Assembly: GCA_964389675.1 (NCBI GenBank)
Contig: CAYMEV010000012.1
Span: 39,329-103,328 of the forward strand
DNA: 64,000 bases
DNA from: an uncultured Candidatus Sumerlaeota bacterium
Lineage (GTDB): Bacteria > CAYMEV01
Direction: 5' to 3'
In this document: positions 34,674-38,217 of the stretch, in pieces
Layout: each line of letters starts with the position of its first letter
How positions within the stretch are numbered: position 1 is the stretch's first letter
Translations under genes and position numbers: made by a program
The notes under the pieces: model-generated
Databases searched by the model: none
Told to the model about the DNA's origin: nothing
The model's input: the letters and a program-made list of their open reading frames with translations, nothing else

Positions 34674-35741
34674 TCAGTTATCTTCCCTTAAAAAAGGCTC
34701 AAACGTTTCTTTATTTATTGATTTATCAAAGGCGGAACGGGGTGAGATAATCTTCTGCCTGAGAAGTTCCATAATGCTTTCATCCATGGATACCATACCC
34801 TCCTTTTTTCCTGTCTGTATATAGCTGTCAATCTGATGGGTCTTTCCCTCCCTGATAATATTTGCCAATGCCGGTGACCCGAACATAATCTCGATTGAAG
34901 CGACCCTTCCTCCTCCTGTCCGCGGCATAAGCTGCTGGGCCATGATACCTTTGAGCGTCTCACCAAGTATGGAGCGTATTGTATCCTGGTCCTTTGCCGG
35001 GAATACATTTATAATCCTGTCGATAGTCTTTCCGGCACTGTTTGTGTGAAGCGTTCCGAATACAAGCAGGCCCTTCTCTGCGCTTTCAAGAGCCATTCGA
35101 ATAGTCTCAAGGTCTCTCAGTTCTCCCACGAGGATAACATCCGGGTCTTCACGCGTGGCTGACTTGAGCCCGTCTATAAATGAATCCATATGAATGCCCA
35201 GCTCTCTCTGATGGATCAGTGATCTGTTATTTTCATGGACAAATTCTATCGGGTCTTCCAATGTAATTATATGATAGCCTTTTTTCTGGTTTATCATGTG
35301 TATTATGGCCGCAAGTGTGGTAGACTTGCCGCTGCCGGTCGGGCCGGTTACAAGGATTAGGCCGTGGTCCATCTCAGCAAGCCTTATTACCTGTTTGGGG
35401 AGGCCGAGCTGTTCAATGGTCATTATCTTAGAGGGGATAATTCTGAATACTGCTCCTTCGCCCCTTTCCTGCCTGAAGATGTTAATCCTGAACCTTGCAA
35501 GTCCTTTTACTTCATATGCAAAGTCTACATCATTTGTCTTCTGATATTCTTCCCAGAGGTCTTCCCTTGTAATTGGCTTTATAAGCTCGTTCCAGTCATT
35601 CTGGCTTATGATTTTATACCTTATGGGCTCCAGGATTCCCCCTATCCTGAATATGGGAGGCCTCCCGACCGTCAGGTGAAAGTCCGATGCCCCTTTATCC
35701 AGCATAAGTTTAAGGAATCTTAATATTTTGTATTTAATCAT
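34674..35741 (-). CDS. pilT: Type IV pilus retraction ATPase PilT
   Basis: 355 aa; Walker A GPTGSGKST, Walker B DPDVILVGELRD, PilT signature AxxNxIRE (ALANIIRE). Confidence 0.9.
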   Translation of the reverse strand: MIKYKILRFLKLMLDKGASDFHLTVGRPPIFRIGGILEPIRYKIISQNDWNELIKPITREDLWEEYQKTNDVDFAYEVKGLARFRINIFRQERGEGAVFRIIPSKIMTIEQLGLPKQVIRLAEMDHGLILVTGPTGSGKSTTLAAIIHMINQKKGYHIITLEDPIEFVHENNRSLIHQRELGIHMDSFIDGLKSATREDPDVILVGELRDLETIRMALESAEKGLLVFGTLHTNSAGKTIDRIINVFPAKDQDTIRSILGETLKGIMAQQLMPRTGGGRVASIEIMFGSPALANIIREGKTHQIDSYIQTGKKEGMVSMDESIMELLRQKIISPRSAFDKSINKETFEPFLREDN

Positions 35742-38217
35742 TGAAATTCACTTCTGAGGAAATATTTTCAAGATAAGGCGCGAAAATGTCTTTTCTTGCA
35801 GCCCTGCTGTAAGCAGTATCTGCAGTTATTGCTCCGTTATTATATAGCTCCAGCAATGCATTGTCGAATGACTGGTGGCCCTGCGATTTCCCTATCTCCA
35901 TCAGCGAGCTGATCTGGAATATCTTATTTTCCCTGATGAGATTAAGTACATTGGGCGTCCCCATGAGTATTTCAAAAGCTGCAACCATGCTTTTTTCATC
36001 CTTTGACTTCAGAAGATACTGTGATATTACGAGCTTCAGGGATTCAGAAATGCTTATCCTGATCTGGGACTGCATATCCTGGGGAAAGGAGGAAATGATC
36101 CTGTCAATTGCCTTTACAGCATTCGTGCTGTTCATTGTACAGAATACAACATGGCCTGTCTCAGCCGCGGTAAGAGCCAGTGATATGCTTTCTGGGTCCC
36201 TCAGTTCGCCTATTATTATCACGTCAGGGTCTTCCCTCAATGCTGCCCTGAGCGCTTTTGCATATGATGATGTGTGTTTTCCTATTTCCCTCTGGTTGAC
36301 AAGACAGCTTTTAAAAGGGTGTACGAATTCGACAGGGTCTTCAATGGTCAGCACATGGTCCCTCTTAAACTCGTTTATAAGATTTACAAGTGTATTTAAT
36401 GTAGTGCTTTTTCCGGAACTGGAAGGGCCGCATATTATAATAAGCCCCTGGTGATATGAGATAATCGAGGCTATACGGTCCGGCAGGCCAATTTCATGTA
36501 GTGTCGGTGGTTTGTCGGGGATGACCCTGAAAACAGCATTCATCCCCTTCTGGTCATAAAACACATTTGCCCTGTACCTGCCGACATTCGGTATATAGTG
36601 ACAGAAATCAAGGTATTTCTGGCTTTTCAGTTTATCTATCTGGTAATCATTCAATATCTGAAATATCAGGTTTTTAATATCTTCGCTTGAAAGGCTGTTT
36701 CCTTTTACATTTATGAGATCGCCCTTTATACGAAGCTTTGGCGGGATCCCCACTGAAAGATGAAGATCAGAGGCATTCTGGTTCCTGGTGGCGATGAGAT
36801 ACCGGTTCAGCTGCGGTTCATCCCTTTTTAGAAGTATCTCCTTTGCCTTTTTCAGTATCTCATTTTCATTATGCAGGGAGACATTTAGCCTTTGTTTCAT
36901 CTCTTTGATCGCTTCAACTGCCCTGTTCCTTATTGAGATCATGGGATCATTCGAAGCGGTTTTTGCAATCAGTTCAAGGACATTCGGATCATCAAAGCCC
37001 TTAATTGCATTAAGGGCTTCAATCCTGACATCCGGTGATTTATCATTTATAAGCGAAGATAATGCCGGCAGGGCTCGTTTATCCTTTATCTTGCCCAGAG
37101 CTTCCGTCGAGGCCCATCTGATCTCGGCATCTTTAAGCGATTCTATAAGATCAGGGACAACATCGTCAAATCCCATGTCACCCAGTATTTCCGCGGCTGT
37201 AATCCTGATCCACCAGTCATTGTCTTTCAGGAGGGCTGATATGCTTTTTGCTACCTGCGGGCTAGGAAAACTTGAGGCAATTATCATTGCTGTGGCTCTT
37301 GTATCCGGGTCAAGGTCTCTGAAAAGGGCAATAAGATCGTTAATGATGCTTCCTGAATAAGCCTTCAGGGAGACAAGGGCCCTTTCCCTTATCCATCCCG
37401 GCAATTCCTCAAAATAGTGTATAATGGTCTTTAATACCTTTTCTCTGTCGCTGACCTTCAGGAGCACCTCAAGTGCTACTATCCTTGTATGGTCATCGCT
37501 GTCTGAAAGCAGGGGGATGAGTTGCCTGGAGATATCAATATTCCTTTTGTAATACAGGTCGAGTATCTTTTCCCCTATCTTGCTTTTCTGGTTAAGGCCT
37601 GCTTCCTTCAGGTATGTGATCAGAAGGTCTATATCTGTAATATTTGCTGTATTGGTCACTATCTCAATTAATTTTTGCTTGATCTGCTCATCTTTTGTAT
37701 TGCTGAATCTTGGTATTAGTTTTATGATTGTCTCCGGATTTATGTCTTTCAGCTTGTCAAGCACCTTCAGTCTGAGAGAATGCTCTACCTTATCGAGGAT
37801 GGAGAGCATTATATTCTCATAGTCAGCCATATCAGGAAGGTCAAATATCAGGGAAAGGATGTTCTTGTCAAGGGAACGGTCCTTAATATAAGTGTTTATG
37901 GGTTCTATCAGAAGAATGCTTTTTTCCCTTGATATCATGTCCAGTATGCGTCTTCTGGCAACAGCCGGCTGTTCTTTCATTGAGTTCAGAAAAAAAAGAA
38001 AATCATTCCTGTCAAACTGATGCAGCTTTACAAAATGAATGAATGCCCTCAGAAGTATAGGATCACTGCTGTATGCAAACCATATGATGTCCTTAATCCT
38101 GGTTTTTCTATCTGCAAGCAGGGTTTTAAGGAGCTCTATCTTTTCTTCCTTTGAAACACCTATATTGGTCTTCAGAGTTTTTAATATTTCCGATTTATCT
38201 TCATTAAATATAGACAT
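35734..38217 (-). CDS. PilT/PilU-like secretion ATPase fused to a ~460-aa N-terminal HEAT-repeat domain
   Basis: 827 aa; C-terminal half has Walker A GPSSSGKST, Walker B DPDVIIIGELRD and VLNLIRE; N-terminal half has repeated HEAT/PBS-lyase-like units (DWWIRITAAEILGDMG, DAEIRWASTEALGKIKDKRALPAL, DKSPDVRIEALNAIKG). 8-nt overlap with pilT. Confidence 0.8.
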   Translation of the reverse strand: MSIFNEDKSEILKTLKTNIGVSKEEKIELLKTLLADRKTRIKDIIWFAYSSDPILLRAFIHFVKLHQFDRNDFLFFLNSMKEQPAVARRRILDMISREKSILLIEPINTYIKDRSLDKNILSLIFDLPDMADYENIMLSILDKVEHSLRLKVLDKLKDINPETIIKLIPRFSNTKDEQIKQKLIEIVTNTANITDIDLLITYLKEAGLNQKSKIGEKILDLYYKRNIDISRQLIPLLSDSDDHTRIVALEVLLKVSDREKVLKTIIHYFEELPGWIRERALVSLKAYSGSIINDLIALFRDLDPDTRATAMIIASSFPSPQVAKSISALLKDNDWWIRITAAEILGDMGFDDVVPDLIESLKDAEIRWASTEALGKIKDKRALPALSSLINDKSPDVRIEALNAIKGFDDPNVLELIAKTASNDPMISIRNRAVEAIKEMKQRLNVSLHNENEILKKAKEILLKRDEPQLNRYLIATRNQNASDLHLSVGIPPKLRIKGDLINVKGNSLSSEDIKNLIFQILNDYQIDKLKSQKYLDFCHYIPNVGRYRANVFYDQKGMNAVFRVIPDKPPTLHEIGLPDRIASIISYHQGLIIICGPSSSGKSTTLNTLVNLINEFKRDHVLTIEDPVEFVHPFKSCLVNQREIGKHTSSYAKALRAALREDPDVIIIGELRDPESISLALTAAETGHVVFCTMNSTNAVKAIDRIISSFPQDMQSQIRISISESLKLVISQYLLKSKDEKSMVAAFEILMGTPNVLNLIRENKIFQISSLMEIGKSQGHQSFDNALLELYNNGAITADTAYSRAARKDIFAPYLENISSEVNFND

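Follow-up and report, generated by a model that had tools for sequence, protein, structure and literature searches.

PilU is able to work through a crippled PilT (PMC6858323, PMC12607626, PMC6762196), and how two such retraction ATPases cooperate, whether as stacked homohexamers, as mixed rings or otherwise, is debated. Interaction data for PilT and PilU conflict; published work favours separate homohexamers over hetero-hexamers (PMC6762196, PMC13584747), and PilT paralogues, of which Myxococcus xanthus has four, are often separate or conditional in their action (PMC13584747). In solved hexamers of PilT, PilU and PilB a threonine of chain N touches the second histidine of the His box of chain N+1 at the closed interface. 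This Thr-His pair, with a C-alpha distance of 5.7 Å, is evolutionarily coupled, and a role as proton relay has been suggested for it (PMC6858323, PMC13142100). In PilT of Pseudomonas aeruginosa (PaPilT) the histidine concerned, H229, coordinates the gamma-phosphate, and the H229A substitution abolishes twitching of P. aeruginosa yet leaves partial function (PMC6858323, PMC12607626). McCallum et al. tie a pH-titratable histidine to the loss of activity below pH 6.5. Here we describe a gene pair from an uncultured Candidatus Sumerlaeota bacterium (contig CAYMEV010000012.1), lying in a stretch of 64,000 nt that we refer to, at its full length, as the window. The first gene encodes an 827-aa protein in which a HEAT-repeat arm is fused to a PilT-type ATPase, and the second, which overlaps its end, encodes another PilT-family ATPase that we call the partner. 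On balance we think it probable that the two genes encode two subunit types of a single type IV pilus retraction motor of the PilT/PilU kind, with the HEAT arm docking or regulating it.

The fused gene (Table 1) is one open reading frame (ORF) with an ATG start and zero internal stops in the ORF listing and translation, and its start codon is supported because F4 is nearly invariant and L15 invariant in the family. AlphaFold2 (AF2), given a 57-sequence alignment as input, returns a model (mean predicted local distance difference test score, pLDDT, of 78.6) in which residues 8–445 form a single continuous solenoid of about 28 helices, with a per-block pLDDT of about 78–96. Residues 1–235 have no Pfam match better than E = 0.08; past the first ten of them the per-block pLDDT is mostly 80–92, and conserved positions in these N-terminal repeats include W46, D52, P84 and R89 in the family alignment. 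The Pfam matches to HEAT repeats, at about residues 235–440 (HEAT_2, 96.4 bits; HEAT, 50.6; HEAT_PBS, 40.8), and to T2SSE, at residues 580–742 (128.7 bits), each exceed their cutoffs, and HEAT membership is given both by repeat matches above gathering scores and by the predicted alpha-solenoid fold. TIGR01420 (pilT_fam) matches the ATPase half at 393.8 bits (cutoff 319.1) over residues 470–809, which cover profile positions 2–341 of 343.

A preliminary description of the window had proposed this fusion, with a HEAT domain of ~460 aa, and had suggested a search for HEAT_2/HEAT_PBS and T2SSE. The fusion is borne out by the single ORF, by the Pfam and TIGR01420 matches and by orthologues of the same length, and the domains sought all score above their cutoffs; the extent of the HEAT domain is reproduced by the AF2 solenoid (8–445) but not by Pfam, which recognises HEAT only at about 236–445. 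The same description had allowed that two separate genes might have been misjoined. Such misjoining, or an assembly artefact, is for practical purposes ruled out by the continuous ORF and by same-length orthologues in more than 100 clusters from independent assemblies. PBS-HEAT repeats are known as a protein-binding scaffold, and we infer that residues 1–445 form a protein-binding arm.

A PilT of about 355 aa follows the fused gene on the same strand wherever the contig reaches far enough, and in all 99 complete loci, pooled from GTDB genomes and JGI metagenomes, a partner-lineage PilT lies directly 3' of the fused gene and on the same strand. The 8-nt overlap between the two genes, already noted in the preliminary description, is confirmed by the ORF coordinates (35734–35741). 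Of the 71 junctions for which a distance was obtained, with partner starts called heuristically, 35 show an overlap (−1, −4 or −8 nt), and at 56 the genes are no more than 15 nt apart. Translational coupling of this kind favours production of both proteins in matched quantity.

The partner had been taken for a standard pilT, and this does not stand. Its closest solved relatives are PilT retraction motors, but on sequence grounds it is a dedicated lineage that lacks the first histidine of the His box and, in the clade of the window pair, carries lysine or arginine at the interface threonine. The first histidine is absent from the partner in every one of the 99 pairs, lysine or arginine occupies the threonine position in 118 of the 120 nearest partner relatives, and among the genome loci that position is R in 37 and K in 28. 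When 1.84 billion representatives were searched exhaustively by HMMER with the partner as query, the matches fell into three tiers: lysine at the threonine position is limited to the nearest clusters (58–64% identity), a second tier (53–58% identity) keeps threonine and has leucine or valine for the first histidine, and 93 of the best 150 matches are fully canonical. Matches picked by partner similarity alone lead back to the fused gene. P0213 and P0216, each with lysine, both lie directly 3' of a HEAT-PilT, which upstream of P0213 has an Asn-type His box, and P0218, which keeps the threonine, lies behind an 824-aa HEAT-PilT that keeps the histidine. In every look-up that included upstream sequence, the gene upstream of a partner-lineage gene was a fused gene.

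Some of the partner-lineage PilTs among P0212–P0217 have a low-complexity N-terminal extension of 130–300 residues, and the extensions of P0212 and P0213 share a conserved motif, K-T-R-[QK]-Q-L-K-A-F-Y-Q. At L087 (3620..5131) an extended partner starts at the end of the upstream HEAT-PilT, so that both subunits are extended in some lineages.

The fused protein belongs to a conserved family. A search of 5.8 billion proteins yielded about 60 clusters of 824–863 aa that can be aligned to the window protein over its whole length, four of them at 71–82% identity and the rest at 40–44%. Where these have database names, they are called 'twitching motility protein PilT' or 'PilT/PilU family type 4a pilus ATPase', and they come mostly from metagenome-assembled genomes (MAGs) of Thermoanaerobaculia. 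With an alignment of the arm alone as query, a survey of one genome per GTDB species matched 149 species-representative genomes, labelled nearly all as Acidobacteriota (Thermoanaerobaculia, Holophagae, Vicinamibacteria or Sulfomarinibacteraceae), and the nearest of the 149 (L007) is 75% identical to the window protein; the best 80 of the 149 are the genome loci analysed here. A second group, clade B, was found with the HEAT-PilT upstream of P0218 as query and comprises about 56 clusters of about 820–845 aa, labelled as MAGs of Myxococcota, Deltaproteobacteria, Alphaproteobacteria or Acidobacteria. A scan of JGI metagenomes with alignment A3 added 77 further loci, and a metagenome scan with the single L088 protein gave no match. 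Full-text literature searching for a PilT with a HEAT or repeat arm, with most subscription journals beyond its reach, found no paper on the architecture, the one text in which both subjects occurred being an unrelated list of references, and a search of the literature on PilT in Acidobacteria found nothing relevant. The family is common yet goes under generic names, and its architecture and partner pairing are undescribed. The architecture had at first been called unrecognised, a view that would fall if it proved a common, annotated PilT subclass. That no paper was found agrees with the first part, although the protein is one of a conserved family that spans the 149 species-representative genomes and clade B; as to the second, it is indeed common, but it carries generic names only and forms no recognised subclass.

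The preliminary description also held the PilT core to be complete. The Walker A and B motifs are present, as are an Asp box (LTIEDPVEF) and the C-terminal NLIRENK, but the second His-box histidine is replaced by Asn696, and it is replaced throughout clade A, to which the window pair belongs. Against the two-histidine His box of PaPilT (H222, H229), the fused protein thus keeps H689 and has N696 for the second. Sixty full-length fused members were aligned to P. aeruginosa PilT. The Walker A lysine, the Asp box and the N2D arginines are kept in 58–60 of the 60, the Walker B glutamate in 56 (aspartate in 3), and the first His-box histidine with its preceding threonine (AAETGH) in 59, whereas at the second histidine we find N in 57, S in 3 and histidine in none. 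The same position in 79 genome loci is N in 60, S in 17 and D in 2, again with no histidine. At the C terminus, where the fused protein reads NVLNLIRENK (NVLNLIRE against the AIRNLIRE of PilT) and the partner ALANIIREGK, the family consensus is N-I-A-N-M-I-R-D-E-K, with conservation of I-R-[DE] and K but not of A-I-R-N. With Asn696 in place of the gamma-phosphate-coordinating histidine, ATP hydrolysis by the fused subunit is probably altered or slowed, and the ATPase would be without the pH-titratable histidine of McCallum et al.

A neighbour-joining (NJ) tree of the ATPase domains, with PilU-like sequences as outgroup, places all fused proteins in one clade and all partners in another, each in 30 of 30 bootstraps, so that each lineage has a single origin. 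The two clades are not sisters, as the node of their common ancestor also takes in canonical PilTs, and each splits into A and B. This topology implies that the two-gene module arose once and was inherited as a unit; it fits one origin followed by co-diversification.

The residues at the positions of H229 in the fused protein and of T220 in the partner vary together. Of the 99 pairs, 77 combine N, S or D in the fused protein with K or R in the partner, 20 combine H with T or A, two combine N with T, and none combines H with K or R; a third case of N with T came from the look-up of P0401, and all three belong to clade B. Partner lysine or arginine therefore occurs only alongside fused N, S or D and never with fused H (0/20). 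In clade A the loss is reciprocal: the fused protein keeps the threonine and has lost the histidine, and the partner keeps the histidine and has lost the threonine. A possible explanation is that both proteins assemble into one heterohexamer, for example in alternation, in which the lysine or arginine of the clade-A partner replaces the missing histidine in trans and the intact threonine of the fused subunit completes the canonical site of the partner. The contact between neighbouring chains in solved hexamers (PMC6858323, PMC13142100), the pair counts, the retention by each protein of the residue that the other has lost, and the matched amounts favoured by coupling are all consistent with such a ring. 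However, all K/R pairs lie in clade A and represent one phylogenetic event, so the 77:0 association is not independent evidence and we do not use it as statistics. The three clade-B loci with Asn plus Thr show that loss of the histidine needs no change to lysine or arginine, which rules out a strict rule to that effect, and published work on PilT/PilU favours separate homohexamers (PMC6762196, PMC13584747). We therefore regard the mixed ring as unlikely, though worth keeping in view. The same degree of doubt attaches to the broader proposal that the motor is obligately hetero-oligomeric, whether its ring is mixed or it forms a fixed double ring, with the clade-A active sites split between both polypeptides. 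If this were true, such a split-site motor would have alternating catalytic and regulatory sites and six docking solenoid arms, and would be the first natural hetero-hexameric motor of the PilT family.

Two metagenome loci, L110 and L117, have further His-box variants: one reads 'TTMPT', with proline at the histidine position, and the other 'AADKGHLVLGTLPT', where the fused-type protein itself has lysine in the place of the threonine.

In clade B the His box of the fused protein is fully canonical in 51 of 54 clusters. This would suit an independent motor, in which the fused protein assembles into a homohexamer of its own and serves as a separate retraction (or other) ATPase that the arm localises or switches, the adjacency of the genes reflecting co-regulation of two paralogues and not their physical cooperation. 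PilT paralogues are indeed often separate or conditional, as with the four of M. xanthus (PMC13584747), and further PilT paralogues lie near some of our loci, such as a 387-aa protein in L023. However, the pairing is invariant, the partner lineage is dedicated, and stop/start overlap is more frequent than simple co-regulation would usually produce, and we consider this independent motor improbable.

In some genomes these extra PilT-family paralogues, whose His boxes are fully canonical, are encoded a few kb upstream of the pair: in L023 at 1496..2659 (387 aa, 'ETGHLILSTLHT'), about 6 kb upstream in L037, L043 and L077, and also in L100 and in L102, which has a PilU-like 'ASLTGH' protein and a further PilT. 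These organisms thus have three or four such ATPases. Proteins with two ATPase modules were also encountered. P0085 (582 aa, on an ENA contig of 8092 bp) has the C-terminal half of a HEAT-PilT, with an Asn-type His box, in frame with a complete partner PilT across a linker of ~30 residues; a frameshift error or natural fusion of the two subunits would account for it. P0215, P0220, P0221, P0222, P0225, P0230 and P0231, of about 710–740 aa, have two tandem PilT-family ATPase modules, and in several of them (including P0215, P0220 and P0222) a PilU-like first module ('SA[AL][LM]TGH') is followed by a PilT-like one. Provided that the genes are real and not read-through calls, they would be Rosetta-stone evidence for physical association of PilU with PilT.

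The explanation we prefer is thus a motor built from two subunit types. In this model the 355-aa partner would be the PilT-like core, and the 827-aa protein, co-made with it through translational coupling, would be a second, accessory PilT-family ATPase. The HEAT solenoid would dock the motor to another cell component or allow regulation through it, and it is a reasonable inference that the whole is a tethered or regulated retraction motor. The two ATPases might work in the mode of PilT and PilU, where the accessory ATPase acts only with PilT, and in clade A, having lost the gamma-phosphate histidine (Asn696), the fused subunit would depend functionally on its partner.

Several observations weigh against this model. 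Asparagine, serine and aspartate are typical gamma-phosphate sensors in other P-loop ATPases, so that hydrolysis by the fused protein may be normal. As the histidine is retained in clade B, the family as a whole cannot follow the logic of a crippled accessory subunit. The likeness to PilU is limited, as the ATPase scores 234.5 bits against PilU (9n32) and 309 against PilT and is not a PilU orthologue, and the fused gene precedes its pilT, which reverses the order of pilT-pilU. The genomes are without exception MAGs or metagenome contigs. Genes for PilB, PilC, PilM-Q and pilins are absent from the 64-kb window, and ORF clustering found no core pilus genes conserved across related loci, so that it is family membership that carries the assignment to a pilus.

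The same lack of linked core pilus genes in the loci examined, together with the loss in clade A of an otherwise invariant histidine, could be explained if the pair served a different machine, type IV filament-like or secretory, or if the fused protein were a nucleotide-sensing regulator or scaffold that retains an ATPase fold. Such a non-pilus role seems very unlikely. The scores of both proteins clear the PilT/PilU cutoff comfortably and fall far short of those of the DotB, TraJ, GspE, PilB, ComGA, VirB11 and FlaI models, and conservation of the Walker A lysine, Asp box, Walker B glutamate and N2D arginines argues for real nucleotide turnover. Nor was there a meaningful PADLOC match to defence systems; an anti-phage role for the pair was dismissed, as PADLOC gave only generic HEAT and P-loop matches.

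All-against-all clustering of ORFs from the 80 loci placed the fused gene and the partner in every locus and the next most frequent cluster in no more than 16, so that the conserved unit is exactly these two genes. The neighbours of the pair in the window (TauE, UvrD, a split transketolase, a FecR-like protein, GAF-GGDEF, a che cluster, a histidine kinase and a sigma-54 response regulator) are common to an 82%-identical relative and absent from distant loci. The preliminary description had drawn attention to the chemosensory and diguanylate-cyclase genes. These are real, but they lie 5–13 kb from the pair, beyond housekeeping genes, and synteny of the signalling block with the 82%-identical relative (L003/L004) extends at least to the MCP gene, where those loci end. 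As the genes are shared only with this relative and are absent from Thermoanaerobaculia loci, they carry little functional weight, and we discarded linkage to chemosensing or cyclic di-GMP as a functional clue. The giant PilX-like protein that had been placed at the start of the window could not be confirmed, the sole Pfam match of that protein being DUF4900 at 26.5 bits, below the cutoff of 29.4.

The TMEM43-like gene upstream of the fused gene is kept at the same place in the close relative (L003 8514..9692), and a 65-aa gene is called in L003/L004 at the place that matches the small ORF of the window. The TMEM43 family is best known from a eukaryotic nuclear-envelope protein. Upstream of the clade-B pair in L168 (GCA_020632795.1, GC 71%), at 429..8855, lie three large putative lipoproteins without a Pfam match, each of which starts with long acidic repeats of the ETGETGDTG type.

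Table 1. Location in the window of the gene pair, its domains and motifs, and features nearby
Feature	Position	Strand	Basis or remark
HEAT-PilT fusion gene	35734..38217	-	827 aa; stop codon 35734-35736; ORF, translation, Pfam and NCBIfam matches, full-length orthologues
N-terminal family-specific helical repeats, residues 1-235	37513..38217	-	without Pfam match; all-helical in AF2 model
PBS-lyase-type HEAT repeats, residues 236-445	36883..37512	-	invariant DWWxR and EALG motifs
Solenoid-ATPase linker, residues 446-468, one short helix	36814..36882	-	AF2 secondary structure, lower conservation
PilT-type ATPase (N2D plus CTD), residues 469-827	35737..36813	-	TIGR01420, solved relatives, Foldseek
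Walker A GPSSSGKST, residues 597-605	36403..36429	-	motif alignment
Walker B DVIIIGELRD, catalytic Glu671	36196..36225	-	motif alignment
His box of fused protein, AAETGHVVFCTMNS	36127..36168	-	alignment to three solved PilTs; Thr687 and His689 kept
Asn696, at position of PaPilT H229 / GmPilT H230	codon 36130-36132	-	second His-box histidine replaced
8-nt stop/start overlap of fused gene and partner pilT, ATGATTAA	35734..35741		sequence
Partner pilT, 355 aa	34674..35741	-	TIGR01420 441.1 bits (cutoff 319.1); partner-lineage orthologues 3' of fused gene in 99 complete loci
His box of partner, SAEKGLLVFGTLHT	35043..35084	-	Leu225 for first histidine, second histidine kept
Partner Lys223, at interface threonine PaPilT T220 / GmPilT T221	35073-35075	-	replaces threonine
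Small ORF, 62 aa (MEDRVGELLRRYPYLDEIF...)	38286..38474	+	between fused gene and TMEM43-like gene
TMEM43-family protein	38525..39700	+	PF07787, 275.9 bits; divergently placed upstream of fused gene
Signalling block	18412..29730	-	FecR-like, GAF-GGDEF diguanylate cyclase, HAMP-MCP, CheW, CheA (Hpt plus HATPase_c), CheC, CheD, histidine kinase, sigma-54 response regulator
914-aa ORF	45974..48718	-	syntenic 910-aa L003/L004 gene annotated as cytidylate kinase plus several S1 domains (cmk-rpsA-type fusion)
Protein of at least 768 aa, N-terminal hydrophobic helix (GGILILVLMVLFVLLLF)	2..2305, runs off window start	-	DUF4900 26.5 bits

The family is a natural example of two ATPases tied to each other genetically, in at least two broad lineages, and the reciprocal loss of Thr and His in clade A makes the question of separate or mixed rings directly testable. 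An arm of 445 residues on a class of motor thought to be compact points to a docking or regulatory partner in Acidobacteriota, whose surface motility is, to our knowledge, almost unstudied.

Of the systems already described, PilT is closest to the fused ATPase. The ATPase half shares the N2D plus CTD layout of the solved PilTs (P. aeruginosa PilT 3jvu/3jvv, G. metallireducens PilT4 6ojx and A. aeolicus PilT 2ewv), the Walker A motif, Asp box, Walker B motif, first His-box histidine and a LIRE-type C-terminal motif, with AIRNLIRE partly kept as NVLNLIRE. Among solved structures it matches P. aeruginosa PilT best (3jvu/3jvv, 309 bits), and Foldseek matches it to PilT4 with E = 1e-19. However, the solved PilTs are compact proteins of 356–390 aa, to which the fused protein adds an N-terminal extension of 468 residues. 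The PilT/PilU systems of Vibrio cholerae, P. aeruginosa, Neisseria and M. xanthus likewise have two adjacent PilT-family paralogues, one of them plausibly accessory, although PilU is without a solenoid and keeps both histidines (PMC13142100, PMC13584747), and the fused and partner clades are separate from the PilU-like outgroup sequences in the NJ tree. PilB, GspE and PilF carry N-terminal domains (N1D, MshEN, GSPII) for docking and regulation and are still hexamers, and the Thermus PilF chain 6f8l, at 913 aa, shows that long N-terminal domains are tolerated by a homologous extension ATPase. Unlike PilB and GspE, the fused protein has no T2SSE_N (PF05157) or MshEN domain, and its scores of 99.8 bits against TIGR02538 (cutoff 675.65) and 105.7 against TIGR02533 (cutoff 630.25) indicate a PilT-type rather than a PilB-type core. 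The arm itself is of the PBS-HEAT type when compared with the repeat proteins CpcE/CpcF, NblB, YibA and the synthetic alphaRep, but it is not a bilin lyase, with NCBIfam scores of 23.6 bits for CpcE (cutoff 330), 18.8 for CpcF (cutoff 220) and 31.1 for NblB (cutoff 300), and it differs from those proteins in being joined to an ATPase and in having family-specific repeats over residues 1–235.

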